Assembly (NCBI GenBank): GCA_037443825.1
Contig: JBBINP010000001.1
Location: 1,430 to 65,429 of the forward strand
Length of the DNA stretch: 64,000 nucleotides
Source: Candidatus Moraniibacteriota bacterium
GTDB taxonomy: Bacteria > Patescibacteriota > Minisyncoccia > Moranbacterales > JBBINP01
Direction: 5' to 3'
Below the pieces are notes generated by a model that was given only the letters and a program-made list of their open reading frames with translations, made no database searches and was not told the DNA's origin. Made by a program: the position numbers and the translations under genes. Positions 3,588 through 59,706 of the stretch are shown one piece after another (within the stretch, counting starts at the first letter, position 1; each line of letters opens with the position of its first letter).

Positions 3588-3905
3588 AAAATTTGAAAAA
3601 ATATCAAATAAAACGCCCGACTTCTTGCTTTATTTTCTTATTGTCTGTATAATAGATAATGTTTGTCAACCCCGCGATTAAAAAATCGGCGGGGGTGTGG
3701 TGTCTTTACAAATAAAATTATCGCTTTTCCGGCATCCATTTAAAATAAAAATCATTGTTTTCTCGCCGAAAAAAAGGCGAGGCCGAGGGTGAATGGATTA
3801 TTTTTTTAAGAACAATTAAATATCTTTAATTAAAAAACTCATTGCAAATTTGCTTGTTTTCCAGACATTTAGCAAAACAAGAAATGTCAAATGAGGGTTG
3901 TTTTT

Positions 3906-22650: not shown

Positions 22651-23304
22651 ATGAAAGAAAAAAGCGTTAAAACAAAAGGAAAGTTTATTGTGCTGGAAGG
22701 CGGAGAAGGCAGCGGAAAGAGCAGTTGCATCCAATATCTGAAAAAAAAACTGGCCGGGCGCGACGATGTTGTTTTTACGCGCGAACCGGGCGGAACGCCG
22801 TTCGGATTGAAACTTCGCGAATTGTTGCTGCATAATCGAGAAAAAAGGTCCGGCCTGGCGGAGCTTATGGTTTTTTGCGCTGATCGGGCGGATCATTGCG
22901 AATCGTTCATTTATCCTTCCTTAAAAAAAGGAAAAATCGTGATTTGCGATCGTTTTGATTACTCAACTTACGCGTATCAAATTTTTGGCCGCCAGGAAAA
23001 AGCGCACGAGAACGATTTTAAAACAATAAACCGCGTGGCTAAAAATCCAGGGCGCGCGCGCGAAATCAAGCCCGATTTGGTCGTATTTCTGGATGTTGAT
23101 CCGAAAATCGGATTGACGAGAGTCAAAAATCGTCCCGACGACGACACGGTCTTTGATGCCGAGGAATTGTCTTTTCATCAAAGAGTGCGCGAGGGATATC
23201 GGAAACAAATTGGCTCGGAATGGATTGTTATTGACGCTGGCAAAAGAAAGGAGGATGTTCAGGAAGAAGTTTGGCGGGCGGCGCAAAAAATAATAAAAAA
23301 CTAA
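22651..23304 (+). CDS. tmk: thymidylate kinase
   Basis: FIVLEGGEGSGKSS P-loop, a DRFDYSTYAYQ-type motif, and the lid region. Confidence 0.85.
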   Translation: MKEKSVKTKGKFIVLEGGEGSGKSSCIQYLKKKLAGRDDVVFTREPGGTPFGLKLRELLLHNREKRSGLAELMVFCADRADHCESFIYPSLKKGKIVICDRFDYSTYAYQIFGRQEKAHENDFKTINRVAKNPGRAREIKPDLVVFLDVDPKIGLTRVKNRPDDDTVFDAEELSFHQRVREGYRKQIGSEWIVIDAGKRKEDVQEEVWRAAQKIIKN

Positions 23305-23318
23305 AAAGGAGGAAAAAT

Positions 23319-24722
23319 ATGATCAAAGTCAGATTAGTGTCCAACACAGATGCCGATCCGATAGTTTTAGCGCAATTCGGCGCCAATGTGTGCTACGACA
23401 AAGAAGCTGTTTTTGGGGAAAGCAATATTAATGTGGAAAAAGGCCTTTTTGACAAAGGTCATCACACTACTTTACAACACTGGTTCGCCACTTTTTTGGT
23501 GGAAGGCATCGCGGTTTCGGACATAACTTTCGGTTTTCACCTGACACACCCTTTTTATAATTCCGGACAAAGAAGCGGGCGGTATTGCGCGAGCATGTTC
23601 AATGACAAGGATTATGATGAAACAATCAAAAAATACGTAAGAAAATTTTGGCCGGAAATTTCCGAAATCCAGATGAAGAATGTCGCGGATTACGTGAAAT
23701 TCGGAGTGGAGACGTACAAAGCCAACATATCTCAGGCGGGCAATCTGACCCTTGATTACTTAATGAAAGAAAGGCCGAAAGTTCCGGCAGAAGTTTCGGC
23801 GGAACTGAAAAGAAAGGGTTTTAAGGGACACAAAGATAATGCTTTGAAAATCGCCCAGGAACAAATGAGGGTTTTTATTCCGACGATTTTTCCGACCGGA
23901 TTTCTGCACACGCTTAATCTGACGGCCCTGGCGGCTCTTTATGAAACTGCTTGGACGCCGGCGATGAAATACGCGACTGGCGAAATGGCGCGCCTGGTTT
24001 TGGAAAAATTTCCGCAACTTTCGTTTTTATTCAAAAAAAACAGAAGAAAAGACCATAAGTGGTCAATAAAAATTCCGCGCGTCAAACTTATTCCGATAGC
24101 CAGAAAACCTCGCCTGAAAAAAATGAAAATAAGCGGGGAAAGTAATTTTGTTTTTGCCGCCGCTGGCATGAAACACCCGCTGGATAAGCTGCATTTTAGT
24201 CCGGAAATGATGGACAATTCGGCAAGCGGCGCGGAAATGGAAATTGAAACGTCAGTGGCCACGATGGGACAGGATCAAAGACATAGAACGATTGGCAGAG
24301 GAAGCGCCAAATTTACCGGCGGTTTTTATATGCCGCCGATAATAAGCGAACTCGGTATGGAAAAGCAAGCGGAAATTTTGATGCGAAAATGGATAAATCT
24401 TTCCAGAGAAGTTCCAGAAACATTGGCGATGTGTCTGGCTCCCTACGGAGCGACTGTAAAATACAAAAAACGTGCTTCTTTCAACGCTTTTTTGCATGAG
24501 CAGGGCAAGCGGTCCTGTTGGCTGGCGCAAGAAGAAATCTATCACCTGAGCAGGTCCTTTCGTTTGGCTATTGCCAAAGAAAAAGGCAAAAACTCTCCGC
24601 TGCTGGCTATTTTTGATCCGCCCTGCCGCCAAACCGGCATTTGCGGAGAAGGCAGTCGTTATTGCGGGCGCGAGATCGGCGTTCGTTTGTCCGGCGATTA
24701 TTTTCCCAACAGAAAAATTTAA
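23319..24722 (+). CDS. thyX: flavin-dependent thymidylate synthase ThyX, tandem-duplicated (two ThyX folds in one 467-aa chain; N-terminal copy degenerate)
   Basis: N-terminal half aligns to ThyX (GHHTTLQHWFATFLVEG...SGQRSGRY), but RHR is replaced by THP and the R..AQ.EI motif is lost. C-terminal half retains QDQRHRTIGRGS and KRSCWLAQEEIYHLSRSFRLAIAKEK. The start was moved to ATG 23319, where an AAAGGAGG motif lies upstream; the ORF track starts at 23271 and overlaps tmk. Confidence 0.7.
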   Translation: MIKVRLVSNTDADPIVLAQFGANVCYDKEAVFGESNINVEKGLFDKGHHTTLQHWFATFLVEGIAVSDITFGFHLTHPFYNSGQRSGRYCASMFNDKDYDETIKKYVRKFWPEISEIQMKNVADYVKFGVETYKANISQAGNLTLDYLMKERPKVPAEVSAELKRKGFKGHKDNALKIAQEQMRVFIPTIFPTGFLHTLNLTALAALYETAWTPAMKYATGEMARLVLEKFPQLSFLFKKNRRKDHKWSIKIPRVKLIPIARKPRLKKMKISGESNFVFAAAGMKHPLDKLHFSPEMMDNSASGAEMEIETSVATMGQDQRHRTIGRGSAKFTGGFYMPPIISELGMEKQAEILMRKWINLSREVPETLAMCLAPYGATVKYKKRASFNAFLHEQGKRSCWLAQEEIYHLSRSFRLAIAKEKGKNSPLLAIFDPPCRQTGICGEGSRYCGREIGVRLSGDYFPNRKI

Positions 24723-27708: not shown

Positions 27709-28533
27709 TTGCCAAATGAAAGTTGCGATGTAGTTGTTGTTGATCCGCCATATAATATAGGAAAAGATTTCGGAAACAATATAGATAAGCGCGAATTGAA
27801 AGAATATATTGTTTGGTGTAAAGAATGGATAAATGAATCAATTCGCGTAATGAAGCCAACGGGGACAATGTTTATTTATGGATTCAGTGAGATACTTGCT
27901 TATTTATCAGTAGAAATTCCTATCAATAAACGCTGGTTTATTTGGCATTACACGAACAAAAATGTCGCTTCGTTAAATTTTTGGCAAAGAAGCCATGAAT
28001 CAATTATCTGTGCGTGGAAAGATAAACCAATTTTTAATAAAGATGATGTCAGAGAGCCATACACCGAAGGTTTTTTGAATGGAGCCGCCGGAAAAATCAG
28101 AAAAGGAACTGCTGGAAGATTCAGCAGTAGCGGAAAAGAAACGGTTTATAACGCTCATGCCGGCGGGGCCTTGCCTCGCGATGTAATAAAAATACCAGCT
28201 TTGGCTGGCGGGGCGGGAATGAATGAAAGATGGTTTATTTGTAAAACTTGCAAAGATCAAGTTTTTGAACCAAGAGAATTAAAAAATCATGCTAAACATG
28301 ACATAGTCAAACACCCGACACAAAAACCTATTGAATTGTCGCGAAAATTAGTAATGTCCGCGATGCCGAAAAAAGACGGAGTTGTGTTGGTGCCATTTGT
28401 TGGCACTGGCTCTGATTGCGTGGCAGCTAAGGAGTTAGGCCAATTTTATGTAGGGTTTGAAATAAACCCCGATTATATTAAACTGGCTGAAAAATATTTG
28501 GAAAAAAGTAAATACATTTCAAAACTATTTTAA
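27709..28533 (+). CDS. beta-class N4-cytosine/N6-adenine DNA methyltransferase (DPPY motif IV first, FVGTGSD motif I last). Its reading frame is open upstream to 27475 and contiguous with the shifted LexA C-terminus
   Basis: VVVVDPPYN, the PTQKP motif, and the C-terminal FVGTGSDCVAAKELG. 27709 is a TTG. No ATG or GTG occurs in frame between the stop at 27472 and 27709, although the conserved N-terminal region (ILGDAAEELKKLPNES) lies upstream of the TTG. Confidence 0.75.
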   Translation: MPNESCDVVVVDPPYNIGKDFGNNIDKRELKEYIVWCKEWINESIRVMKPTGTMFIYGFSEILAYLSVEIPINKRWFIWHYTNKNVASLNFWQRSHESIICAWKDKPIFNKDDVREPYTEGFLNGAAGKIRKGTAGRFSSSGKETVYNAHAGGALPRDVIKIPALAGGAGMNERWFICKTCKDQVFEPRELKNHAKHDIVKHPTQKPIELSRKLVMSAMPKKDGVVLVPFVGTGSDCVAAKELGQFYVGFEINPDYIKLAEKYLEKSKYISKLF

Positions 28534-28743
28534 AGAATTATCTATTTCTTTTTTCTTTGACAAAAAAGTATTTGGGGTAAAAACTGAGTATTTATCTTTT
28601 GAGTTCCAGTTAAATGATTCTTTAAACTCAAGCCAGCCACTTTCGCGCGAGATTATTCTGTCCGCGATTGTTTCGTGGAATAGAAATATCTTTTTGTATT
28701 CATCGCTTTTTAGAAAATCTGTATTCATAATAAAGCGGATAAA

Positions 28744-31743
28744 TTACTCTCCCCACACGCCCGCTAAAATTTCCTCAATTCGCTTTTGGGCTTCGGATTT
28801 AAGCAGTCGCACGCCTTCCAGCGCCTGCATTTGCTTGTCTAGTTTCTCCACGATTTGGTGTTGGGTTTCGAGGGGTGGAATTAGAAAAAATATGTTTTTT
28901 AGATCTTTTTCATAGATCGCTGCAATATTTGTTGAGGCTTTTTTTATTCCATTTAGCTGATCGGAAACATAATCAGACAAAAAACAATAATTCAAATAAT
29001 CGGGCAATATTTCAGGTTTTGTTTTGATTCTCATCAACATGTGATTAAACAAAACCGGTCTTTCATTATTTTTCTTAAATATTGCCGTTTTTCCTACTAA
29101 TTCAAAGCTGTTACGTGTATTAAACAGAAGGTCATTATCGTCCAGTTTAAATTTGTCTATTTCTTCATTACTAGCTTCAATCGTAACAATACTTGCTTGC
29201 TCAATAAAACCTGACTGAATATTGTTCATTTTGATATATTCAACATCTCCCTTGTCTGTTTCCTCTTTTGTTTTTACTAAGCCAATTTGGGTTGATTCAA
29301 CAATATTTTTAAAAAACTTTTTTTCACCGATAAACGAATGACTACTAATTGAAAAATTATCTTCAATCCTCTCCGCTCCATCAATAATCTGCTTTTGCTT
29401 TTCGATTTTTTCCACGATTTCGTTTTGGACTTCAAGCGGCGGGAGGGGAATTTGTAATGCTAAAATTTCTTCGGTTTTATAGGTTTCGCGACCGGTTGAA
29501 TCTTCAATGCCCAGTTTCGCAAAAGCCGGTTTTAAAAAAATCAACAAATAGTCAGGATTGATTTTTGTATCGTCAATCCTAAACGGAACAAAAGTACCCG
29601 TTGAAACATAATTTTTATCGGAAATCGCAAACGAGCCATTCTGAGTATGCATTTTCCCAATAACAAGATCATCTTTTTGAATAAGAAGTCGTTTTTTGAC
29701 TTTTAGCTCTACCCCCAAACATTCGTTGTTTGTAGAAATAGTATTTGTTTTTGTTGAGATTGTTGGCTCGCAATATATTTTTTCATCTTCAATTTCAATT
29801 TTTCTTTCATCCGACAAATCAATCAAAAATGTGCTCAACGGTTCAAATGTAAATTGCTTTGTTTCTTTCAAAATCTCAAAAAGCTTGGCAAGTTTTTCAT
29901 CTCCTTCTAAAGCATTTTTCTCCAATTTACTCAGAAATTCCCTTGCAATATCCATTTGCAAAGCGTCTTTGGGATTAAAAGAAGCGAGGATTTGTAAAAC
30001 GGTTTTTGGTTCAGCTTTTTGTAATTCTTGATAGCGTTTATCAATTTTTGAGCCGTTTTTTATTTCCACACCTTTTAGTGTTTCTTGCCAATCCTTGATC
30101 TGCTCAATGCTTAAATTACTGCGATAGTTTTGCAAGTTAAAATGGTAGCTATGCGCTTTTTCAATGGCTTTGGCAACTTCGTTGTCAATTTGTCCTTCCA
30201 CGATATTGTCAAACTGCCACAATTTCTCGTCATACATTTCCTTGCTGATTTTTTTGCTTTCCAGTTTTTTATCTAATTGTTCAATAAGTTTTTCTCGTTT
30301 TTTAGCGTTTTTCTCTTTGGTTTTTTCGCTAACCTCTTTTTTTATTCGCTCGGCAATGCGCGGATCAAGGGTTTCGATCTGTTCTTTGGAAATGCAAAAA
30401 CTGTGTTTGGTGTCTTGTGGCTTTTTACTTTGCTTAACTTCTGCAAATAGTTTTAAGAGTTCAGGAATTTGACTGCTTTCAATCGGTTTTCTGTTGGTTC
30501 CCATACTAAAGCCGTCATTTTCTATTTTGTAATACCAAACAAAATCTGTCGGTTCACCTTTTTCAAAATATAAAATCGAAGTTTTGGCTCCTTGCCCGCT
30601 CTTGCTCACAAACACGCCTTGCGGAAGTGAGATAACTGCTCGCAGATTGGTTTCATTCAGAAGTATTTTACGAAGCGCGCAAGCGCTATTTTGCCCCCAA
30701 GTTAAAAAGCCCTCGGAAACAACTACGGCACAACGCCCCTTATCTTTGAGTAAATCAAACATAAGTTTTACGAACAAAATCGTCGTTTCCGATTCCTTGG
30801 AGTATTCTTCCCAAACATTTGGATATGCCGGCTGGTCTCTCTCAGCACCAAAAGGGGGATTGGCAATTACCACGCTTTTGCTTCCGCCGTCTCTGGACGG
30901 ATCGTACATTTTGAGACTGTCGCCTTGATCAATGTTGTGCGGATTAAGTCCGCGAATATACATATTCACCGCCGCCATTTTGCGAATCATTCCCGCATAT
31001 TCAATTCCACCAATTCCGGTGCGATAAAACATATTGGCGATATTTTCGGCAGGAAATTGCCTTGTTTGGCGCGCTTTTTCTATCACATAATCATACGCAT
31101 CAAAAAGAAAACCAGCCGTACCGCAAGCGGGATCAAAAATCGTGTCCGTAAAATCCGGGTCAACCATCTCAACCATCATTTGGCGAATATGGTCTGGCGT
31201 TCGGTAAAGTCCCAAATCTTTTGTTCCGCCGGTTTCAGAAAGAGCGGATTCAATCGCATCGCCGAGTAAATCAGTTTTTAAAATATATTTTTCGTCAATT
31301 TCGTTTACCATGCCGATTACTTCAGCGATCACTCCGCCTTTGACATTATTGGTAAAGTTGGAATTGGCAAAAACTTCTTCCATTAAAACCAACTGATCTT
31401 GCATTTTTTTGGGTAGATTTCCGATGACGACTGTTCGCGCTTTGGAAAGAATGGTGGAGTAAAACGGAAAAATATTTTTATTGAGTTCTGATAAAATTTG
31501 CTCACCGTTCAAAGAAAGCAAATGCGAAAAAAGCAGGCGATAATTTTCACCCGAGAAAAGCTCGCGCAGCGGCTTGAATGATTCGTCTTGTTTGAGTTTG
31601 GCTTCGAAAATGCGAAGTAAACAGAGCTCAATAATATATTCAACACGCATAACCGGCGTGCCGGCAGGACGAAGCTTATTGTGAAGCCTTTTTAGAATAT
31701 TATTTGTTTCGCTATCTGCGTAATGTGTTGTTGATCTGCCCAT
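28744..31743 (-). CDS. Type I restriction-modification HsdM-HsdS fusion (N6-adenine MTase domain + coiled-coil linker + two target-recognition domains)
   Basis: MTase motifs DPACGTAGFL (motif I) and VVIANPPFG (motif IV). A long charged coiled-coil spans about aa 430-640. Two TRD modules each end with the conserved HsdS helices (LPPLEVQNEIVEKIE and IPPLETQHQIVEKLD). Confidence 0.8.
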   Translation of the reverse strand: MGRSTTHYADSETNNILKRLHNKLRPAGTPVMRVEYIIELCLLRIFEAKLKQDESFKPLRELFSGENYRLLFSHLLSLNGEQILSELNKNIFPFYSTILSKARTVVIGNLPKKMQDQLVLMEEVFANSNFTNNVKGGVIAEVIGMVNEIDEKYILKTDLLGDAIESALSETGGTKDLGLYRTPDHIRQMMVEMVDPDFTDTIFDPACGTAGFLFDAYDYVIEKARQTRQFPAENIANMFYRTGIGGIEYAGMIRKMAAVNMYIRGLNPHNIDQGDSLKMYDPSRDGGSKSVVIANPPFGAERDQPAYPNVWEEYSKESETTILFVKLMFDLLKDKGRCAVVVSEGFLTWGQNSACALRKILLNETNLRAVISLPQGVFVSKSGQGAKTSILYFEKGEPTDFVWYYKIENDGFSMGTNRKPIESSQIPELLKLFAEVKQSKKPQDTKHSFCISKEQIETLDPRIAERIKKEVSEKTKEKNAKKREKLIEQLDKKLESKKISKEMYDEKLWQFDNIVEGQIDNEVAKAIEKAHSYHFNLQNYRSNLSIEQIKDWQETLKGVEIKNGSKIDKRYQELQKAEPKTVLQILASFNPKDALQMDIAREFLSKLEKNALEGDEKLAKLFEILKETKQFTFEPLSTFLIDLSDERKIEIEDEKIYCEPTISTKTNTISTNNECLGVELKVKKRLLIQKDDLVIGKMHTQNGSFAISDKNYVSTGTFVPFRIDDTKINPDYLLIFLKPAFAKLGIEDSTGRETYKTEEILALQIPLPPLEVQNEIVEKIEKQKQIIDGAERIEDNFSISSHSFIGEKKFFKNIVESTQIGLVKTKEETDKGDVEYIKMNNIQSGFIEQASIVTIEASNEEIDKFKLDDNDLLFNTRNSFELVGKTAIFKKNNERPVLFNHMLMRIKTKPEILPDYLNYCFLSDYVSDQLNGIKKASTNIAAIYEKDLKNIFFLIPPLETQHQIVEKLDKQMQALEGVRLLKSEAQKRIEEILAGVWGE

Positions 31744-31746
31744 AAC

Positions 31747-34113
31747 TTATACCTTAAATGTTGATTGTAATTCCTCATAAACTTGAGGAAAGCGGTTATC
31801 AAAAACCTGATTTACTTCTTCATAATCCGCGCCAATAATTCTTATAAACACCGGATTATTAAATACTTCTTGCGGTGAAATGCGTTTTTTCTCGGCTATG
31901 TTTGCCGAAACAATATCTTTCATGTCGCGCAAGATTTGAATTTGCTTGTCGTTGAAATTATATGTCTTGATGTATGAATCAAAACCTCTTTCAACTCGTT
32001 CTTTCGGAGTAGGAATTTTTTTGATTTTTAAAGCGTGTAAAAAAAAGTCCCAAATTGATCCCTGTTCAAAATCGTAGGCTTTTTGCAATTGTCCCTCATC
32101 AAGATAAACGTTTGGGTTGCGCGACCAATTTTTAATCTCGTCAATTTCTTGCTCGCTTGGCTCGTAATTTTCATTCGATTTAACTTTCTCTTTAATCTCT
32201 ACGATTTCCGGAGCTTTATCCTTAGTGATCTCTTCTTCAAAAATTTCTTTGGCTTTTTCAATAGGGATATTGTCTATTACTTTTATGCTGTCGCCGTGAA
32301 GGTAAACCCTCTGAATAAGGTGCGCGGGATCTGGATTGTCAATTATACCTGGATTTACCCCACCCCCTCCGCCTCCACTGCCTCCAGTTTGTATTCCTGT
32401 TACAACTTTTTTGTTTTCCTTTACAGTGCCCTTGCCGTTATCTTCCATTTTTTTGCACAGACCAACAAAATCCAAAACTTTAAAACTGAATTTTCCAGTT
32501 TTCGGATCAAGACGAGTTCCACGCCCGAGCATTTGAATATACTTTCCGACTGATTTTGTAAGATTGGCAAAAGCAATATAGCGAACGCAAGGAATATCAA
32601 CGCCGGTACTCATAATATCCACAGAAACAGCGATAAACGGCTTATGATTTTGATCTTTGAACCATTTTTTAAACGTTGCGTTAAGCTCGTCGTTTTCTGA
32701 AATAATAGCTTCTGCATAGCGTGGTGATAATTCATCCTCGCTTGTTTTAAATACTTGATTGATTGCTTTGACGAGTTGAACGGCATGAGCTTGGCTGACG
32801 CCAAACAAAATTACCTTCTCGCCATATTCTGTATTGGCTTTCAGTTCTTCTGCAATTCTTAAGCAATTATCCCAAGCGATAAATTTTCTATTTAGTTGTT
32901 CTAGTTTTATCTTTTTTTCTTGATCCAGCTTAACCAATTCTTCGGTTTTCAAATCAAAGTAGTGATCAAAATTTATGCCAACCTCTCGCGCTGTTTTGGT
33001 AAGTTCTGTTTCAATGGATAAAACTTGATAGGGAGCCAAAAAACCCTCATCAATGCCACGCGTAAGGTCAAATTGATAATCTGGCTCGCCGGTTTCACAG
33101 CCAAAAAGCCGATAAGTATCCAAAATCGCCAAATCTTCATCTGGAATTTCTTTACCTTTTTTAGCAACCGCCGTTCTTGGAGTGGCGGTCAATCCAACAC
33201 GAGGGCACAAGAAATGATCAAAAATCAATTTGCGATTAATATTGATAGATCGGTGACATTCATCAACAATAATCAAATCATAAAAACTGTTTGGAATGTT
33301 TTGATAAATATTCTCTAGCGTGTCAATAACGACGACATGAATTTGTGTGTTTTTGTATTGTTTGTAATTGCCCGAAGTAATACGGATAGCAGAGTATTCC
33401 TTACTAATAAGTGAAAACCCGTCGTTGATAACTTGCTCGGCAAGCATAACTCTATCAACCACAAACAAAACACGCTTTGCCATGTTGTATTCAAATAGTG
33501 CTTTTGTGAAAGCAGCCATTGTTCTTGTCTTTCCAAGACCAGTTGCCATATGAACAAGCATTTTTTGTTTACCCTCTTTGTATTTTTGAATAAGCGCTTG
33601 AATACATTCGGTTTGATAATAGGTTTCTTTACCACAGCTTGGATTTATTCCACCCGCAATACCTTTATCAATCGTGATTACTCGATCAAGATTTATTTTT
33701 CTTGCCTGCTCGATTTTAAGTTGCATTTCTTCAAGTGTCATCAAGCTGTTGACTTGGCGAAATTCTCCCGCTTCAAGCCCTTTCCATTCGGTGTCATAAA
33801 AAAGGGTTCGCTCCGGAGAACAAGCATACAAAAAACGAGGTTTTAAAACTGAAGCGTAAAGTGTACGAAGTTTTGTTAGCGCCTTTTTCTCGTCTTCAAA
33901 TTTATTCTCAAAAATAGCAACAATATTATGATTCAAATCCAATAGCGTAATGTCCGGTTTTACACTTTCTCGACCTTCAAATAGCTTTTGTTGTTCTGGT
34001 GTAAGTGAATATTCTTGTTGGTACAACAAAGTATCGCCGACTTTCCAGCCGAGTTTTTTTAGGTCTTCAATTATTTTCAGATCTGTGTCCGTTGCTTCGT
34101 TAATTCTAGGCAT
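31747..34113 (-). CDS. Type I restriction enzyme R subunit-like (N-terminal PD-(D/E)xK nuclease + SF2 helicase)
   Basis: Nuclease motif KPDITLL...IFENK. Helicase motifs HMATGLGKT (Walker A), IIVDECHRS (Walker B), LTATP and QMLGRGTR. A poly-Gly tract (GGSGGGGGG) is present. Confidence 0.8.
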   Translation of the reverse strand: MPRINEATDTDLKIIEDLKKLGWKVGDTLLYQQEYSLTPEQQKLFEGRESVKPDITLLDLNHNIVAIFENKFEDEKKALTKLRTLYASVLKPRFLYACSPERTLFYDTEWKGLEAGEFRQVNSLMTLEEMQLKIEQARKINLDRVITIDKGIAGGINPSCGKETYYQTECIQALIQKYKEGKQKMLVHMATGLGKTRTMAAFTKALFEYNMAKRVLFVVDRVMLAEQVINDGFSLISKEYSAIRITSGNYKQYKNTQIHVVVIDTLENIYQNIPNSFYDLIIVDECHRSININRKLIFDHFLCPRVGLTATPRTAVAKKGKEIPDEDLAILDTYRLFGCETGEPDYQFDLTRGIDEGFLAPYQVLSIETELTKTAREVGINFDHYFDLKTEELVKLDQEKKIKLEQLNRKFIAWDNCLRIAEELKANTEYGEKVILFGVSQAHAVQLVKAINQVFKTSEDELSPRYAEAIISENDELNATFKKWFKDQNHKPFIAVSVDIMSTGVDIPCVRYIAFANLTKSVGKYIQMLGRGTRLDPKTGKFSFKVLDFVGLCKKMEDNGKGTVKENKKVVTGIQTGGSGGGGGGVNPGIIDNPDPAHLIQRVYLHGDSIKVIDNIPIEKAKEIFEEEITKDKAPEIVEIKEKVKSNENYEPSEQEIDEIKNWSRNPNVYLDEGQLQKAYDFEQGSIWDFFLHALKIKKIPTPKERVERGFDSYIKTYNFNDKQIQILRDMKDIVSANIAEKKRISPQEVFNNPVFIRIIGADYEEVNQVFDNRFPQVYEELQSTFKV

Positions 34114-37768: not shown

Positions 37769-38413
37769 ATGAAAAAAATATTATTTTTTGTTGTCAGCAT
37801 AAGTTTTTTGTTTACATTAAGTGCGAGTGGCACATTTGGAAGCGATCCGCCACCCGGCGGTAATCCACCTGGCGCAACTACTCACGCCGTAAAATTTGAA
37901 AATCCGTTAAAATTTGACACAGTGGAAGATATTCTAACCAGCTTGCTTAACAGTTTGCGCGGGGTGATTGTGGTAATCTCGCTTGTTTTTATTGTTATCG
38001 GGGCGATTTTGTATATTACCTCGGCTGGCAGCGAAGAAAGAATTAAATCAGCCAAAAAGGCGATTACCGCTTCCATGATCGGACTGGCAATCGGGATTGC
38101 GGCGCCCTCATTCCTCAAGGAAATAGCCACTATCTTGGGTTGGACAAGCCAAGTTACCGATCCTAGCGGGCAAAATATTCTTACTATCAAACAAATCGCT
38201 CTCAATACTCTGGAATTTCTTTTGGGCATTGTCGGTATTTTTGCCATCATTATGCTGGTGGTGGGCGGAATTTCTTATTTCGGAGCGGGTTTAAATGAAA
38301 AACAAGCCGAATCTTCCAAAAAAATAATCTGGTTTTCCGTTTTGGGCATCCTGGTTGCCATGGCGGCGCTTGTTATAGTTAAGCAGATAGCCGCGTTTTT
38401 TGGCGTTTCATAA
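37769..38413 (+). CDS. VirB2/TrbC-like pilin candidate (paralog of the upstream gene; signal peptide + 3-4 TM helices)
   Basis: Shares the segment ISLVFIVIGAILYITSAGSEE with the upstream gene; hydrophobic helical hairpins throughout. Confidence 0.5.
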   Translation: MKKILFFVVSISFLFTLSASGTFGSDPPPGGNPPGATTHAVKFENPLKFDTVEDILTSLLNSLRGVIVVISLVFIVIGAILYITSAGSEERIKSAKKAITASMIGLAIGIAAPSFLKEIATILGWTSQVTDPSGQNILTIKQIALNTLEFLLGIVGIFAIIMLVVGGISYFGAGLNEKQAESSKKIIWFSVLGILVAMAALVIVKQIAAFFGVS

Positions 38414-38425
38414 AGCGTAAAATTT

Positions 38426-38902
38426 ATGATATTCGGAGTTCCGCAATTTATTAATATTGAAGACAAAGTGGCCGGCCCCTTGACTGGCAAGCAATTGCTT
38501 TGGATGATCGGCATGGGAGCGGCGCTCTTGGTATTGTGGAACACATTGGAAGACAACGCTTTTTTTGTCGCGGCTATTCCGGTAGTTTTGATTTTTTGCG
38601 CTTTTGCTTTCTATCGTCCGTATGAACAATCAATGGTTGAATTTGTGGGACATTCCGTGATTTTCTTGTTTCAGCCGAAAATTTACATATGGAAGAGAAC
38701 TGGAGAGCCGGAAATTTTGGCAAAAATCCAAAAAACAAAAATATCCTTTTCGGGGGAGGAAAAAAAATACACTTCGGACGATTTCGGATCTTTCGCTGAT
38801 CTTCTGGATTCGGATGGTGGCAGGCGCGGAGGAAAAATCATGAATCTTATCGATGAGCGGGAAAAAAAGAAACATAAAAAGAAATTTCCTTTTTTAATGT
38901 AA
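38426..38902 (+). CDS. PrgI-family / VirB3-like small membrane protein
   Basis: N-terminus ...DKVAGPLTGKQLLWMIGMGAALLV matches the PrgI-family signature (G-LT-RQ) from memory, followed by two TM helices; it sits directly upstream of VirB4. Confidence 0.55.
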   Translation: MIFGVPQFINIEDKVAGPLTGKQLLWMIGMGAALLVLWNTLEDNAFFVAAIPVVLIFCAFAFYRPYEQSMVEFVGHSVIFLFQPKIYIWKRTGEPEILAKIQKTKISFSGEEKKYTSDDFGSFADLLDSDGGRRGGKIMNLIDEREKKKHKKKFPFLM

Positions 38903-38904
38903 TT

Positions 38905-39585
38905 ATGGAAACATTGCATTCCAAAAAAAATATCGGGGGCGCGAGCACCCAAAAATACGTTGATATTGAAGAAATCAAGGATGGCGTTATTATGCTTAAA
39001 AACGGCGCTTTGCGCGCTGTGCTTTTGGTTTCCGCGGTTAATTTTGACCTCAAATCGTCGGAAGAGCAAGACGGGATTATCGGACAATATCAAAATTTTC
39101 TTAACTCCCTTGATTTTCCCTTGCAAATCATTGTCAGTTCCCGCAAACTAAATATTGAGCCGTATTTAAAATTTATTTCAGAGCACGAAAGAAGGCAAAC
39201 CAATGAGCTATTGCGGCTGCAAATATCCGAATATAAAAATTTTGTCCGCAACCTCACGGAAGTTTCCAATATTATGTCAAAATATTTTTACATCACGGTG
39301 CCTTTCGCGCCGGTGGAAAACAAGGAAAAAGGAATTTTCAGCCAATTATCAGGACTTCTTCGTCCGAAACAGGCGATTATTCAGAAACGGGAATTGTTTG
39401 AAACGTATAAAAGCCAGTTATGGCAGCGCGTGGATCATATTGTCGCCAGCCTTTCAGGCATCGGGCTCAAAATTGTTCCGCTCAAGACGGATGAAATTAT
39501 TGAACTTCTTTATAATTCATACAACCCGAGCATTTATAATAACGCGATTATCAGGGATAGTGAAAAAATTGAATTGGTAAAATAA
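38905..39585 (+). CDS. VirB4/TraC-family ATPase, N-terminal domain encoded as a separate ORF
   Basis: 226 aa matching the N-terminal domain that precedes the ATPase core in full-length VirB4. It is separated from the ATPase ORF by a stop plus frame change (TAA at 39583, next ATG at 39593). Confidence 0.55.
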   Translation: METLHSKKNIGGASTQKYVDIEEIKDGVIMLKNGALRAVLLVSAVNFDLKSSEEQDGIIGQYQNFLNSLDFPLQIIVSSRKLNIEPYLKFISEHERRQTNELLRLQISEYKNFVRNLTEVSNIMSKYFYITVPFAPVENKEKGIFSQLSGLLRPKQAIIQKRELFETYKSQLWQRVDHIVASLSGIGLKIVPLKTDEIIELLYNSYNPSIYNNAIIRDSEKIELVK

Positions 39586-39592
39586 AAAAATT

Positions 39593-41401
39593 ATGTTTGG
39601 ATGGCAAAATAAAAACAAGAAGGATGAGGTTTTAGAAGACGAGCGAATTTATCGGCAGGGCTTGGCGACCATAAAAGATCTTATTGCTCCGGCATCGGTG
39701 CGGGTGAATATTGATTATCTGCATGTCGGAGAAACTTTCGTCAAAACTCTTTTTGTTATTGCTTATCCGAGATTTCTTCATACTAACTGGTTTTCCACCA
39801 TTATTAATATGGACAATTCCATGGATATCGCGATGTTTGTGCATCCAATCAACACAAACGATGTTTTGAAGGAACTTCGCAAAAACGCGACAAGAGTGGA
39901 ATCGCAAATTCAGCTGGAAAGCGAAGGAGGAAAAGTTCGCGATCCCATTCTTGAAACGGCGATTCATGACATTGAGGAGTTGCGGGACAAATTGCAGCAA
40001 GGCACGGAAAAATTTTTTCGTTTCGGTTTGTACGTAAGTGTCTACGGGCAAACACTGGAAGAAGCCAGAAAAATCAGCCAGCAAATAGAAGCGATTCTGG
40101 AAGCCCAGCTGGTGTATGTCAAGCCGGCGGTAATGCGGGCGGAGAACGGCTTTTCTTCCACATTGCCACTGGGAAACGATGAATTGGATGTCGCCAACAA
40201 CCTCAATACATCTCCTCTTTCCACTACTTTTCCTTTTGTTTCGGCGGAATTATCATCCAATGATGGAATTCTTTACGGCATCAATCGGCACAACAATTCG
40301 CTGATTATTTTTGATCGGTTTAAAATGGAAAACGCCAATATGGTGATATTCGCTAAATCCGGCGCGGGCAAAAGTTACACTGTCAAGCTTGAAGTTTTTC
40401 GTTCCATGATGCTGGGAACAAATATCATTATCATAGATCCTGAAAATGAATACCATTATTTGTGCGAAAAAGTGGGAGGTACTTTTGTGAAAGTTTCGCT
40501 TAATTCTCATTTTCGCATAAATCCCTTTGATCTTCCCAAAATCAAAGAAGATGATGATCCGGAAGAAGTAATTCGCAACAATATCGCCAACCTAATCGGC
40601 CTTTTGCATATTATGCTGGGAACAGTGACTCCGGAAGAAGATTCTATCCTGGATCATGCCATCAGAGAAACATACAACATCCGCGACATAACAGTCCAGA
40701 GCAATTTTCAATCTTTCACTTCCAACTCTTTTCCGACTATGTCGGATTTGTATGAAGTTCTTTCCAATATGGAGGGAGCGGAATCGCTTGCCATGCGGCT
40801 GGCCAAATACACAGAAGGAATTTTTTCCGGATTTCTCAATCATCCCACCAACGTGAAAGTGGACAATCAAATGGTGGTATTTAACATCCGTGACTTGGAG
40901 GAAGAATTGCGTCCGGTGGCGATGTATATCGTGCTGCATTTCATTTGGAACGAAATGCGTTCGGAGCTTAAAAAAAGAATAGTCGTTGTTGACGAAGCAT
41001 GGGTAATGATGCAATATGAAGACGCGGCTTCTTTCATGTTCGGCATTGCCAAGCGTTGCCGAAAATATTACACCGGACTTACGACCATTACTCAGGACGT
41101 GAATGATTTTATGGGATCAAGATACGGAAAACCGATTGTCACCAATTCTTCCATGCAGCTGCTTTTGCGCCAATCGCCGGCTTCCATTGACATTCTGGTG
41201 GAAACTTTTTACTTGACTGATCAGGAAAAATTCCTGCTTTTGGAAAGCAGCGTCGGTGAAGGCATTTTTTTTGCCGGACTTAAGCATGCGGCCGTCAAGG
41301 TTGTGTCTTCTTACACCGAAGACCAGGTGATCACTTCGGATCCCAAACAGCTTCTGGAAATTGAACAAGCCAAAAAAGAATTTGAAGAGTTGGAAGGATA
41401 A
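39593..41401 (+). CDS. VirB4/TrbE/CagE-family T4SS ATPase, C-terminal ATPase domain
   Basis: Walker A VIFAKSGAGKSYTV, Walker B RIVVVDEAWVMM, and the FVHPINTNDVLKEL region typical of VirB4. Confidence 0.8.
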   Translation: MFGWQNKNKKDEVLEDERIYRQGLATIKDLIAPASVRVNIDYLHVGETFVKTLFVIAYPRFLHTNWFSTIINMDNSMDIAMFVHPINTNDVLKELRKNATRVESQIQLESEGGKVRDPILETAIHDIEELRDKLQQGTEKFFRFGLYVSVYGQTLEEARKISQQIEAILEAQLVYVKPAVMRAENGFSSTLPLGNDELDVANNLNTSPLSTTFPFVSAELSSNDGILYGINRHNNSLIIFDRFKMENANMVIFAKSGAGKSYTVKLEVFRSMMLGTNIIIIDPENEYHYLCEKVGGTFVKVSLNSHFRINPFDLPKIKEDDDPEEVIRNNIANLIGLLHIMLGTVTPEEDSILDHAIRETYNIRDITVQSNFQSFTSNSFPTMSDLYEVLSNMEGAESLAMRLAKYTEGIFSGFLNHPTNVKVDNQMVVFNIRDLEEELRPVAMYIVLHFIWNEMRSELKKRIVVVDEAWVMMQYEDAASFMFGIAKRCRKYYTGLTTITQDVNDFMGSRYGKPIVTNSSMQLLLRQSPASIDILVETFYLTDQEKFLLLESSVGEGIFFAGLKHAAVKVVSSYTEDQVITSDPKQLLEIEQAKKEFEELEG

Positions 41402-42205: not shown

Positions 42206-43732
42206 ATGCCTTCTAAAATATTTTCTGCCGTAACTATCGGCCTTGACAGCGATTTGGTGGAAGTGGAGGTGGATGTTTTGGGTCAGGGACTTCATAATTT
42301 TACGATTGTCGGCCTTCCCGATACGGCCATTAAAGAATCCAGGGAGCGTGTCAGTTCGGCGCTCAAAAACAGCGGTTTTCGTCCGCCTCATCAATGCGGA
42401 CGAATTACCGTAAATTTGGCTCCGGCGGATATTCCCAAAATGGCGCCGATCTATGATTTGCCGATGGCGCTCGGGTTTTTGTTGGCGACGCGCCAGATAG
42501 ATTTTTTTCACGGCGACAAGCTTTTTGTCGGCGAGCTGGCTTTGGACGGACGGATTCGCCCCGTTCAGGGCGTTTTGCCGATCGCGATGTTTGCCGAAAA
42601 AAAAGGAATCGCGGAAATCTACGTTCCTCGCGAAAACTCTTCGGAAGCGAGCATGATGCGGAAAACTAAAGTCATTCCGGCGGAAAATCTGTATTCCTTG
42701 ATCAGTCATTTGACGGGAGAGTCAAAAATTGACGCTTATTCGGGCGAGGATATTAAAAAAATTTTTGAAAAAAACAAACCGCTTTCAGATATGGCGCATG
42801 TCCGCGGACAGGAACACGCCAAAAGATCTTTGGAGATAGCGGCGGCGGGAGGGCACAACGTTATTTTTAGCGGTCCGCCAGGTTCCGGAAAAACTCTTTT
42901 GGCCAAGACTGTGCCTTCTATTTTGCCAAAACTTGATTGCGAAGAAGCTTTGGAAATAACCAAAATATTTTCAGTTTCGGGAAAATTGGCGAAAAATGAG
43001 GCAATTGTCACTGTCCGGCCTTTTCGTTCTCCGCATCACAGCGCGAGTTCGGTGTCGCTTGTCGGGGGCGGGACTTATCCTAAGCCGGGCGAAATATCTC
43101 TGGCGCATCGCGGCGTGTTGTTTTTGGATGAATTTGCTGAATTTCCCCGGAGCGTTCTGGAAAATTTGCGGCAACCGCTGGAAGACGGCGTTATTACGGT
43201 TTCCCGCGCCAAAGGATCTTTGGAGTTTCCGGCCAGGTTTATTTTAATTGCGGCCATGAATCCATGTCCATGCGGCAACGCGACTGATCCGGAAAAAATT
43301 TGCTCTTGCGCTCCGTCGCAAATTATCAGATACCAGCGGAGAATTTCCGGGCCGATTTTGGACAGGATTGATCTTCATGTGGAAGTTCCGCGGTTAAAAT
43401 TTGAAAAAATTGAAGAAGAAACTCCTGGTGAAAAAAGCGCGGATATCAGAAAGAGGGTGGAATCCGCGCGAGCCATCCAAAAGAAACGTTTTCAAAAACT
43501 TCCTATTATGATTAACAGCGAAATGAATTCCCAGCAAATCAGAGAATTTTGCAAACTGGACAATGCCGGAGCGGAACTTCTTCGCAGGGCGGTTTCAACC
43601 ATGCGCTTAAGCGCGCGGGCTTATTATCGCATTATTAAAATTGCTCGCACTATTTCCGATTTGGCAAATGAAGAAAATATCGCGCCGGCGCATATTGCCG
43701 AAGCTATCCAGTACCGTTTTAAAAGCGAATAA
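42206..43732 (+). CDS. comM: ComM/YifB-family Mg-chelatase-like AAA+ ATPase
   Basis: N-terminal ChlI/YifB domain, AAA+ Walker A GPPGSGKTLLAK, and the zinc-finger-like CPCGNATDPEKICSC. Confidence 0.85.
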   Translation: MPSKIFSAVTIGLDSDLVEVEVDVLGQGLHNFTIVGLPDTAIKESRERVSSALKNSGFRPPHQCGRITVNLAPADIPKMAPIYDLPMALGFLLATRQIDFFHGDKLFVGELALDGRIRPVQGVLPIAMFAEKKGIAEIYVPRENSSEASMMRKTKVIPAENLYSLISHLTGESKIDAYSGEDIKKIFEKNKPLSDMAHVRGQEHAKRSLEIAAAGGHNVIFSGPPGSGKTLLAKTVPSILPKLDCEEALEITKIFSVSGKLAKNEAIVTVRPFRSPHHSASSVSLVGGGTYPKPGEISLAHRGVLFLDEFAEFPRSVLENLRQPLEDGVITVSRAKGSLEFPARFILIAAMNPCPCGNATDPEKICSCAPSQIIRYQRRISGPILDRIDLHVEVPRLKFEKIEEETPGEKSADIRKRVESARAIQKKRFQKLPIMINSEMNSQQIREFCKLDNAGAELLRRAVSTMRLSARAYYRIIKIARTISDLANEENIAPAHIAEAIQYRFKSE

Positions 43733-57382: not shown

Positions 57383-57739
57383 TTATTTTAATTCCTGCTT
57401 TGTTTTTTCAATAAAATTTGAAAATATTTCCGGATGCGAAACGGCCATTTGGGACATTGCTTTGCGGTTCAGTTGAATGTTTTTTTCTTTTAATGTTTTG
57501 ATAAAGGAGCTGTATTTCAAACCGTGTTCGCGCAATGCGTTGTTGAAACGCAGAATCCAAAGACCGCGTTGCTCCCGTTTTTTGTTGCGCCGGTCGCGAT
57601 AGGCGTATTTGCCGGCCTTAAGAAGGGCTTCTTTGGCGGCGCGAAAATTGGATTTTCTTCGCCATCGAAATCCTTTGGCCATTTTAATTATTTTTTTTCT
57701 TCTTTTGGATGCGGCCGCGCCGCGTTTAACGCGAGTCAT
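57383..57739 (-). CDS. rplT: 50S ribosomal protein L20
   Basis: MTRVKRGAAASKRRKKI... Confidence 0.9.
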   Translation of the reverse strand: MTRVKRGAAASKRRKKIIKMAKGFRWRRKSNFRAAKEALLKAGKYAYRDRRNKKREQRGLWILRFNNALREHGLKYSSFIKTLKEKNIQLNRKAMSQMAVSHPEIFSNFIEKTKQELK

Positions 57740-57934: not shown

Positions 57935-58135
57935 TTATTTGGCGTAAGGAAGCGCCGCCAACACATTTTTTTCATCGGCGGAAAACAGCCGCCGGTCGCT
58001 TCTTTTTTTGCGTTTGAATTTTCCGGTTTCGCGGGAATTGAAATGGTTTTGTTTCGTGTAACGGCGAAGAACTTTCTTTTTTCCGCTTATTTTTACTTTT
58101 TTGGCGACCGATTTTCTGGTTTTGAGTTTAGGCAT
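57935..58135 (-). CDS. rpmI: 50S ribosomal protein L35
   Basis: MPKLKTRKSVAKKVKISGKKKVLRR... Confidence 0.85.
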   Translation of the reverse strand: MPKLKTRKSVAKKVKISGKKKVLRRYTKQNHFNSRETGKFKRKKRSDRRLFSADEKNVLAALPYAK

Positions 58136-58192: not shown

Positions 58193-58735
58193 TTATTGCG
58201 GGGCGATTAAAACATTAAAACCGCCTGGAAAACGTTTGATTTCCTCCTCTATCTTAAAGGGCAGGGAAATTCCGTTAATAAAATTTTTCAAAATCTTTTT
58301 CCCCAGGTCGGCGTGCGCTTTTTCCCGTCCGTGCAAAATAATTTCTATTTTAACCTTGTCTCCATTTTTTAAAAATTTTTCCACCTGCGCTCGCTTGAAT
58401 TCCAAATCATGTTTTTCGGTGCGGAAGCCAATACGGATGCTTTTAACTTCAATTTTTTTCTGCTTGGCTTGGGTCGCGCGCTTTTGTTTGGATTGCTGGT
58501 ATTGGAATTTTCCGTGATCAATGATTTTGCAAACAGGGGGTCGGACGTTGGGGGCCACTTCCACCAAATCCAATTGTCTTTCTCTCGCTATGGCCAGCGC
58601 TTCAACATTACTCATTTCTCCCAGATTATTTCCTTTTTCATCAATAACCATCACCCGCGGCAAGCGGATGTGTTCGTTGACTCTATAGCGCGGAAGTTCA
58701 ACTTTCCGCGGCTGAAATTTAAATTTTCTGCGAAT
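58193..58735 (-). CDS. infC: translation initiation factor IF-3, probable non-AUG (AUU/AUC) start
   Basis: Body matches IF-3 (VRVIDEKG...LDLVEVAPNVRPPVCKIIDHGKF). The conserved N-terminal region (NEHIRLPRVMVIDE) extends upstream of the TTG reported by the ORF track. No in-frame ATG; candidate ATT at 58735 or ATC at 58744. A stop lies at 58756. Confidence 0.8.
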   Translation of the reverse strand: MRRKFKFQPRKVELPRYRVNEHIRLPRVMVIDEKGNNLGEMSNVEALAIARERQLDLVEVAPNVRPPVCKIIDHGKFQYQQSKQKRATQAKQKKIEVKSIRIGFRTEKHDLEFKRAQVEKFLKNGDKVKIEIILHGREKAHADLGKKILKNFINGISLPFKIEEEIKRFPGGFNVLIAPQ

Positions 58736-58773
58736 GTCAGCGATTTTTAATGATTATGTTTTTTTGGCGCGTG

Positions 58774-59182
58774 TGGAGTTGATGGGAATCGCACCCATGT
58801 CCAAATTATTTTTAAAACGCTTTCTACAAGATTAGTCTGTTTATTGTTTCGGTTTTTCCGAAAGCAGTTGTTTGCCTTGAAACAAACAAAAAAACAAACA
58901 ACTTTCTTTGGGCATTGCTTCGCCTTCCGCCGCCAAAGAACCGCGGTTGGCTATTCTGATAGTTGACACCGGAAATTGTTTATCAGAAATCAACAATCCG
59001 ATGGCCTGGCTGTTAAATTAAGCCAAGGCGGGAGCGAAAGCCGGCGTCATTGCTCGCGCAAAGGCCGCTTTCACTTTTGAGTATAAGTTTGCACTTATAA
59101 TTTTTCGGGAAGTTTGCGACTTTACCGAAATAGTCGGCTTGCGAACGTTTTAAGGAACAATTTGTCGAAACTGAACAACCCC
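58774..59182 (-). ncRNA. ssrA: tmRNA (ssrA), ~409 nt, CCA not encoded
   Basis: Reverse complement starts GGGGUUGUUCAGUUUCGACAAAUUG (compare E. coli GGGGCUGAUUCUGGAUUCGACGGGAUUUG). The acceptor stem GGGGUUG/CAACUCC has a G3-U70 pair. The 3' end is GGAC-AUGGG-UGCGAUU-CCCAU-CAACUCC-A (compare E. coli GGAC-GCGGG-UUCAACU-CCCGC-CAGCUCC-A-CCA). A tag-region-like AAGUCGCAAAC is present. It lies directly downstream of smpB. Confidence 0.8.
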
Positions 59183-59250
59183 GTCTCCGTTTCTGGCTGG
59201 AAATTTCCAGTTTCCAATTTCCGATATCTTTAAATATTGGAAATTGGATT

Positions 59251-59706
59251 CTAAAAACTTTTTAAAACTCTTTCCATTTTTCTTTTGAATTCTTTTTTTG
59301 CGATACTCTGGCGTTTGTCAAATTGCTTCTTGCCCCGTCCTACCGCAAATTCCAGTTTAATCAAGCGTTTTTTAGTATACACACGAAGCGGCACTAGTGT
59401 CAAGCCCCCCACGGCTATTTTTCCGATTAAATGTTTGATTTCCGAACTTTTGAGAAGAATTTTGCGCGGGCGCGTCGGATTGTGGTTGGCAATTTTGCCA
59501 GCCGGCTGATAAGGAGGAATATTGGTATTGATGAGATAAAATTCGCTGTCTTTGCGGGCGATAAAACTGTTTTTCAGGGAAATGTGGCCGGTTTTTATGG
59601 ATTTTACTTCCGGTCCATAAAGCACCAAGCCGGCCTCGTAGCGGTCTAAAATTTCATAATCAAAAGTAGCTTTTTTGTTGACAGCAATAATTTTCATAGT
59701 ATTCAT
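59251..59706 (-). CDS. smpB: SsrA-binding protein
   Basis: MNTMKIIAVNKKATFDYEILDRYEAGLVLYGPEVKSIK... The start was moved to ATG 59706 (or 59697); the ORF track extends 5'. Confidence 0.9.
   Translation of the reverse strand: MNTMKIIAVNKKATFDYEILDRYEAGLVLYGPEVKSIKTGHISLKNSFIARKDSEFYLINTNIPPYQPAGKIANHNPTRPRKILLKSSEIKHLIGKIAVGGLTLVPLRVYTKKRLIKLEFAVGRGKKQFDKRQSIAKKEFKRKMERVLKSF

Follow-up and report, generated by a model that had tools for sequence, protein, structure and literature searches.

A one-piece tmRNA with a conserved 24-codon tag encoded directly after smpB in an uncultured Moranbacteria-like member of the Patescibacteria

The minus strand of the DNA analysed here, a 64-kb stretch of 64,000 nucleotides that we call the window, very probably encodes a functional, canonical one-piece tmRNA (SsrA) of uncultured Moranbacteria-like Patescibacteria, directly after smpB. 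The gene occupies positions 58774..59182 (-), 409 nt from the 5' G1 to the discriminator A, as delimited by ARAGORN, by the Rfam model RF00023 and by direct reading. ARAGORN calls the tmRNA at 58773..59182 (-). The RF00023 match lies at 58771..59182 (-), spans model positions 1-374 of 374 and scores 122.7 bits (E 1.8e-48), where the curated gathering score is 47 bits. When the whole window was scanned with ARAGORN and RF00023, this was the single tmRNA. The features that define a tmRNA are present together: the model match, the acceptor, the T-arm and D-loop analogue, the resume context, the tag frame, pseudoknot 1 (PK1) and a neighbouring smpB. The gene is an added member of a known family, and neither the tmRNA itself nor its missing CCA nor the gene order is out of the ordinary. 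What goes beyond routine is only that a long, basic, Ala/Phe-periodic tag is conserved at the peptide level throughout a clade with very small genomes. For annotation, the tmRNA adds an RNA gene that the ORF track lacks.

An earlier note, made from the letters alone, had placed a canonical tmRNA on the minus strand between smpB and infC, with a G3-U70 acceptor, a UUCGAC motif and a 3' end composed of GGAC, T-arm and acceptor strand, and had named a covariance-model search as the check. ARAGORN and the full-length RF00023 match bear out this identification, and each of the motifs can be read directly. The acceptor stem pairs GGGGUUG (59176..59182, -) with CAACUCC (58775..58781, -), in the letters as in the Rfam alignment, and contains the G3-U70 pair, which is the alanine identity pair; the discriminator A is at 58774. 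UUCGAC is found at gene positions 14-19, and the 3' end is built of GGAC, the T-arm and the acceptor strand. The T-arm, AUGGG-UGCGAUU-CCCAU, is located at 58782..58798 (-) by the Rfam alignment and by comparison of relatives. Both the T-arm and the D-loop analogue are aligned in the Rfam match, and the tmRNA has no anticodon arm. Helix 5 spans 59004..59029 (-) in the Rfam alignment and by direct reading: the last tag codons, GCC UUG GCU, form its 5' strand, UAAUUUAAC its loop and AGCCAGGC its 3' strand. The hairpin parts of PK2-PK4 align to RF00023 with several non-standard pairs.

For comparison, 80 related loci (L001-L080) were fetched from a genome collection by SmpB protein query. At best, the SmpB proteins are 68% identical to that of the window, and these top matches belong to MAGs of Candidatus Moranbacteria/Moraniibacteriota and of other Patescibacteria; at this distance, the host counts as a species or genus of its own. 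A tmRNA directly follows smpB in 60 of the 80 loci according to ARAGORN and in 18 of the other 20 according to Rfam, giving a total of 78/80. Because ARAGORN misses these 18 Rfam-found genes and truncates the tags of two more (13 residues each for L022 and L032), covariance models are needed to annotate tmRNA in the Patescibacteria. The tmRNAs of Moranbacteria, Falkowbacteria and Parcubacteria MAGs resemble the present one in the order smpB-ssrA-infC, in the context AUAAGU-GCAAAC (the hyphen precedes the resume codon), in tags of 20-24 codons and, mostly, in lacking an encoded CCA. In L011 the Rfam match is 587 nt long (72.7 bits). It contains an insertion of ~190 nt in the PK4 region (~3825-4010 of that locus), bounded by an inverted repeat of ~22 nt, AGACATCACACTCCAGAAACAG ... 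CTGTTTCTGGAGCGTGATGTCT, in which no intron family reached the Rfam gathering threshold. Other long matches are 483 nt in L046 and 451 nt in L030 (Rfam) and 556 nt in L056 (ARAGORN), where the 5' end was probably set too far upstream.

The tag reading frame consists of 24 codons from GCA, ANLYSKVKAAFARAMTPAFAPALA, at 59021..59092 (-), and was assigned by ARAGORN, translation, homologous tags and codon periodicity. It has no start codon and ends in PALA followed by UAA (59018..59020, -), a stop codon placed in the loop of helix 5 by ARAGORN, Rfam and direct reading. Together with the alanine carried by the tmRNA, the full tag has 25 residues. Its first half is basic (K6, K8, R13) and its second half follows a 4-residue period, AFAR-AMTP-AFAP-ALA here and AIAN-AFAP-SFAP-ALA in the clade consensus. 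Related tags of 20-24 codons share the consensus ANF[IV]SKAKxA[IF]AxAFAPSFAPALA; examples from relatives are ANFISKAKTAIANAFAPSFAPALA, ANLFSKAKTAIAQAFSANFAYALA and ANFISKVKESFARAFAPSFASALA, and Falkowbacteria-like loci encode AKNTLAKVKAAFSMPAFAPVAA. In the 78 loci with a tmRNA, the tag has 24 codons in 43, 23 in eight, 22 in 14, 21 in five, 20 in one, 27 in two, 14 in two and 12 in two; L046 was scored as 26 by script and has 24 when counted from the homologous resume site. The earlier note had called the tag unusually long. It is indeed far above the E. coli length, but published tags span 8-35 residues (PMC8012679), which takes in 24 codons, and among the relatives this length is the commonest (43/78). 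A limited literature search returned no description of tmRNA tags from Patescibacteria/CPR, and tmRNA databases may list such tags.

Conservation of the tag is seen at the level of the peptide. Among 41 distinct 24-codon tags, the mean entropy at codon positions 1, 2 and 3 is 0.75, 0.49 and 1.27, respectively. Residues A1, N2, K6, K8, A12, A14, F15, F19, A20 and A24 show little or no variation, and most of their third codon positions vary freely. The present tag departs from this pattern at residue 15, where it has M and 39/41 relatives have F, and also deviates from relatives at several variable positions. Because the third codon positions are the most variable and the residues are conserved, the translated frame is, on comparative evidence, under peptide-level selection over all 24 codons. 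The first codon itself is not always alanine: L032 resumes at ACA (Thr), and Falkowbacteria-like loci resume at GUC (Val). The loci noted for their resume codons or ARAGORN calls are L032, L042, L045, L066 and L073, together with the 18 that ARAGORN missed. In sister lineages (L043, L069, L070 and L077) the tags have 12-14 codons. These short tags, ANLFARPAYAVA, ANLFKKPALAFA and ANLFTAKQPALAYA, retain just the two ends of the long tag: they begin with ANLF, as long tags do, and keep the pattern ANLF...PA[LY]A.A. Their retention of only the two ends suggests that the long tag arose through internal expansion.

In its working parts the gene closely follows E. coli SsrA. The two share a tRNA-Ala-like domain with G3-U70, a PK1 immediately ahead of the resume codon, a frame-setting U-A at -5/-4, a resume site at GCA AAC near nucleotide 90, a stop codon within helix 5, a tag that ends in Ala-rich, hydrophobic residues, and SmpB as partner. 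They differ in the tag, which is 24 codons long and basic here (K6, K8 and R13) and 10 codons long and acidic in E. coli, and which ends in ALA rather than LAA. In contrast to E. coli, CCA is not encoded here, the T-loop has a G at the position of U55, and the gene is located directly after smpB and before infC. The Mollicutes offer a second comparison. Their tags end in ..YAFA, resembling the A-hydrophobic-A end here, and are acidic or polar in the N-terminal half, whereas the present tag is basic and Ala/Phe-periodic. Only the terminal A-hydrophobic-A is common to the tag family found here and the Mollicutes tags, and the sequence otherwise looks unrelated. The likeness lies in the small, reduced genomes, in a length more than twice that of E. 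coli and in hydrophobic residues spread along the tag; with 25 residues including the carried alanine, against 27 in Mycoplasma pneumoniae, the two belong to the same size class. The proposal that the tag is comparable to Mycoplasma tags holds for size and apparently not for sequence. In M. pneumoniae, whose genome lacks ClpXP, the 27-residue tag is described as unusually long, and Lon carries out most of the degradation (PMC8403727).

The pathway from processing to degradation has been reviewed for the tmRNA family (PMC8012679), and by analogy with this established knowledge the processing, charging, tagging and proteolysis steps can be proposed for the present RNA. The RNA would probably be made as part of, or beside, a smpB-ssrA-infC transcript. 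RNase P would trim its 5' end, an endonuclease or exonuclease would trim the 3' end after the discriminator A, and a CCA-adding enzyme would supply CCA. Alanyl-tRNA synthetase would then charge the RNA with alanine through G3-U70, and the charged tmRNA would enter stalled ribosomes with SmpB and EF-Tu. Translation is predicted to resume at the GCA at 59092, four nucleotides past the conserved A of AUAAGU, so that Ala plus ANLYSKVKAAFARAMTPAFAPALA would be added to the stalled peptide, and to stop at the UAA in the helix 5 loop. The Ala-rich hydrophobic end (..APALA) would mark the product for an ATP-dependent protease.

Of these steps, proteolysis is the least secure, because the tag ends in ALA and not in LAA or VAA. 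In E. coli, ClpX favours LAA and VAA ends. It is possible, but on our estimate rather unlikely, that an otherwise normal tmRNA carries here a long tag that is not a ClpXP-type degron and has been reshaped for another reader (Lon, FtsH or an adaptor), as in Mycoplasma. The basic SKxK half and the repeated [A/S]-hydrophobic-A-x units would then serve as extra recognition determinants. Several observations are in keeping with such a reader. Selection acts on the entire tag and not on its last residues alone, the consensus has the 4-residue period described above, and the short-tag relatives retain just its two ends. There is also a precedent in the long tag of M. pneumoniae, read mainly by Lon (PMC8403727). 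Against it, ClpXP, ClpAP and FtsH elsewhere also accept an Ala-rich hydrophobic C-terminus, long tags of up to 35 residues occur elsewhere (PMC8012679), and nothing in the 64-kb window bears on the choice of protease. A Pfam search of 50 ORFs in the window detected no ClpX, ClpP, Lon or FtsH family. When proteases and a CCA-adding enzyme were sought in the window by Pfam, the YifB/ComM-like protein at 42206..43732 gave a weak Lon_C-like match only. A literature search on the Clp and Lon content of Patescibacteria/CPR returned nothing relevant. We put forward only tentatively the most specific form of the idea, namely that a 12-14-codon ANLF...PALAxA tag was expanded into one with a basic half followed by some four [A/S]-hydrophobic-A-x units in tandem, and that its reader shifted from ClpXP to Lon, FtsH or an adaptor. 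If true, this would be a second, independent specificity switch of the kind seen in Mollicutes, again in reduced genomes. A tag that reflects a different protease or adaptor would offer a parallel to the Lon switch of Mycoplasma as well as a ready-made orthogonal degron.

The length of the tag depends on where translation resumes. One alternative is a shorter true tag, with resumption further along this frame at one of its internal alanine codons, giving for instance ARAMTPAFAPALA. ARAGORN does report 13-residue tags in two relatives, ARAFAPSFATAVA in L022 and ANAFAPSFAPALA in L032, and tags of 12-14 codons do occur in the related lineages L043, L069, L070 and L077. However, the conservation and the excess of third-position change span 24 codons and include N2, K6 and K8, and the invariant AUAAGU precedes codon 1, which lies at gene position 91, 11 nt past PK1 (position 90 in E. 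coli). The same full frame is open in L022 and L032, where the ACA at the resume position of L032 may explain the internal start chosen by ARAGORN, and the short-tag relatives have the same ANLF start as the long tags. An internal start is very unlikely in our view, and we rejected it on the conservation and codon periodicity covering all 24 codons.

The other alternative for the start of the tag lies upstream. The gene has two GCAAAC elements ahead of the tag stop codon. The first, at 59112..59117 (-), is part of AGUCGCAAAC (gene positions 62-71, 59121..59112, -), and its GCA starts at gene position 66, window position 59117. The second begins at gene position 91, window position 59092. In E. 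coli, U85 and A86 set the frame, translation resumes four nucleotides after A86, at position 90, and the resume context is UAGUC-GCAAAC (PMC2481249). The 10-mer AGUCGCAAAC equals this context except for the base at -5. The earlier note had taken it as a match to the E. coli resume context, from which it derived a 35-residue tag ending in LI. The element is present as described, and the frame read from it does encode 34 residues, ANFPKNYKCKLILKSESGLCASNDAGFRSRLGLI, to which the tmRNA-carried alanine adds the thirty-fifth, but this is neither the resume site nor the frame in use.

The first element lies inside PK1 (59104..59136, -), identified by covariation of stem 1 and by a per-sequence helix search for stem 2. 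In stem 1, CGAC at gene positions 47-50 is paired with GUCG at 63-66, and in stem 2, UUCGG at 54-58 is paired with CCGAA at 75-79. In 73 distinct 5' regions, stem 1 is paired in 100%, with compensatory changes at 4/4 pairs. On the MAFFT alignment 55% of the stem 2 cells are paired, a figure that reflects misalignment of the 3' strand by gaps; searched sequence by sequence, 69/73 contain a helix of 5 bp or more, with a mean of 6.4 bp versus 4.7 in shuffles. G66, the G of the first GCA, is the final base of stem 1 and pairs with C47. Across the 73 sequences this pair is C-G in 60, U-A in 12 and U-G in one; in the 12, the A is compensated by a U on the other strand, which indicates that G66 is constrained as a stem base and not as part of an alanine codon. 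The relatives mostly have CGUAAAAC or CGUUAAAC at the site, without GCA. Rfam assigns AGUCGCAAAC to the PK1 hairpin loop, the -5 base is A and not U, and the frame from this GCA is unconserved and lacks an Ala-rich end. We regard resumption at 59117 as highly improbable, and the first GCAAAC, on the evidence of the Rfam alignment, direct reading, the relatives and PK1 covariation, was rejected as a decoy; its likeness to E. coli is, from these comparisons, a coincidence inside PK1.

The real resume codon, as judged from the same comparisons, is the second GCAAAC at 59092. Rfam places it on the consensus resume site AAUAAuUGCaAAC, and ARAGORN chooses it as well. It begins 11 nt past PK1, and directly before it stands the frame-setting context AUAAGU (59093..59098, -). 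Among 73 relatives, AUAAGU and the longer AUAAGU-GCAAAC are nearly invariant, and the A at -4 does not vary at all; U at -5 and A at -4 are the counterparts of E. coli U85 and A86. The frame set by this codon is the one described in the earlier note as the +1 frame, ending in MTPAFAPALA and a stop, and is identical to the ARAGORN tag. ARAGORN, which the note had named as a check that might define a different, shorter tag, thus overturns the 35-residue reading and leaves the claim of a long tag standing.

The 3' end reads CAACUCC-A-CAC, as had been proposed: CAC follows the discriminator A at 58774, and CCA is not encoded. Among the 77 relatives with a readable 3' end, part of them read by eye, CCA is encoded in 13 and absent in 64, and all have C after the discriminator. 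Within the same window, the bases after tRNA-Pro are CCC and those after tRNA-Ser are CCA. Because both the tmRNA and the tRNA-Pro of the window lack CCA, the organism must add it post-transcriptionally, which is common in bacteria. Across the sequences compared, the missing CCA is the rule in this clade.

A second departure from the standard tRNA-like fold concerns the T-loop, UGCGAUU, which has G at the position of tRNA U55. The D-loop analogue (59171..59172, -) is AG and not GG. In the relatives that could be parsed among L001-L080, the UGC T-loop occurs only with AG (23/23) and GG only with UUC (19/19), and AG with UUC forms a set of eight intermediates. From this pattern, the D-loop analogue and the T-loop seem to co-vary at the tertiary contact that joins them (tRNA positions G18-U55). 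Because it co-varies with the A of the D-loop analogue and is common to 23 relatives, the T-loop G looks tolerated. Three features might suggest a decaying or non-functional copy: the unencoded CCA, the non-standard T-loop G and the failure of ARAGORN in 20 related loci, 18 of which do carry the homologous gene. We give this reading almost no credence: the conserved elements are all intact, the covariance match spans the full model, the adjoining smpB is intact, there is no other tmRNA in the window, and the same features recur, alongside compensatory and synonymous changes, in ~78 independent genomes.

The tmRNA is embedded in a conserved gene order. On the minus strand the genes run smpB - ssrA - infC - rpmI - rplT, and a PIN-PhoH gene and ychF diverge upstream; the order smpB-ssrA-infC is found in 70/73 relatives with enough downstream sequence. 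The gene smpB (59251..59697, -) was identified from the ORF list, by a Pfam SmpB match (E 1.1e-51) and by 68% identity to Moranbacteria SmpB. Its start was taken at MKIIAV..., and the open frame reaches 59820. Its stop codon ends at 59251, leaving exactly the 68-nt gap to the tmRNA 5' end that the earlier note had given. On the other side, infC (IF3; 58193..58744, -) was identified by Pfam IF3_N and IF3_C and by synteny in 70/73. The infC frame opens past a TAA at 58756..58754, and the candidate starts, AUC at 58744 and AUU at 58735, are 30-39 nt beyond the tmRNA end, in agreement with the distance of about 40 nt in the note. In this start region (58733..58756, -), no AUG or GUG is found upstream of the conserved N-terminal block RVNEHIR..., and the infC start is probably non-AUG (AUC or AUU). 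infC is known for an unusual AUU start. The infC product in the public record is shorter, at 152 aa.

In the spacer between smpB and ssrA, a long, AU-rich hairpin is predicted at 59201..59260 (-), with an MFE of -23.9 kcal/mol and a z-score of -5.1; the G+C content of the window is 41.6%. The hairpin overlaps the smpB stop codon, ends ~18 nt ahead of the tmRNA 5' end and is not followed by a U-tract. Hairpins upstream of ssrA with z < -3 occur in 17 of 76 relatives and with z < -2 in 29 of 76. The element may act in processing or stability. Two weak promoter-like consensus matches were found, TTGACA-18-TATACT inside smpB (59403..59374) and TGGAAA-17-TAGAAT (59276..59248), and there is no terminator-like site between ssrA and infC. 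Co-transcription of smpB, ssrA and infC followed by processing is plausible.

Further downstream, the minus strand carries at 57383..57739 (-) and 57935..58135 (-) what are presumably genuine rplT (L20) and rpmI (L35) genes, which we recognised by eye; here the public record calls two plus-strand ORFs of 135 and 92 aa, without Pfam hits. The record stretch with these two calls is L081:529-1215. The two ORFs, antisense to rplT and rpmI, look like a mis-annotation in the public record.

Elsewhere in the window are several other gene clusters. An EcoRI-type adenine methylase, a Bro-N protein and a GmrSD/HNH nuclease at 11258..14364 (+) resemble a restriction-modification or defence cluster, as do an N6/N4 methylase and a type I system at 27709..34113; in the type I system the methylase and specificity domains are fused in a protein of 999 aa that adjoins a 788-aa R subunit. 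A T4SS pilin, a PrgI-family protein and a VirB4/TraG-like ATPase at 37769..41401 (+) resemble a type IV secretion or conjugation system. At 14918..15784 (+) there is an unusual-looking fusion of a Sua5/YrdC domain with an O6-methylguanine-DNA-methyltransferase-type DNA-binding domain. An unusual-looking protein of 483 aa is encoded at 23271..24722 (+), in which the ThyX domain covers residues 22-247 only.
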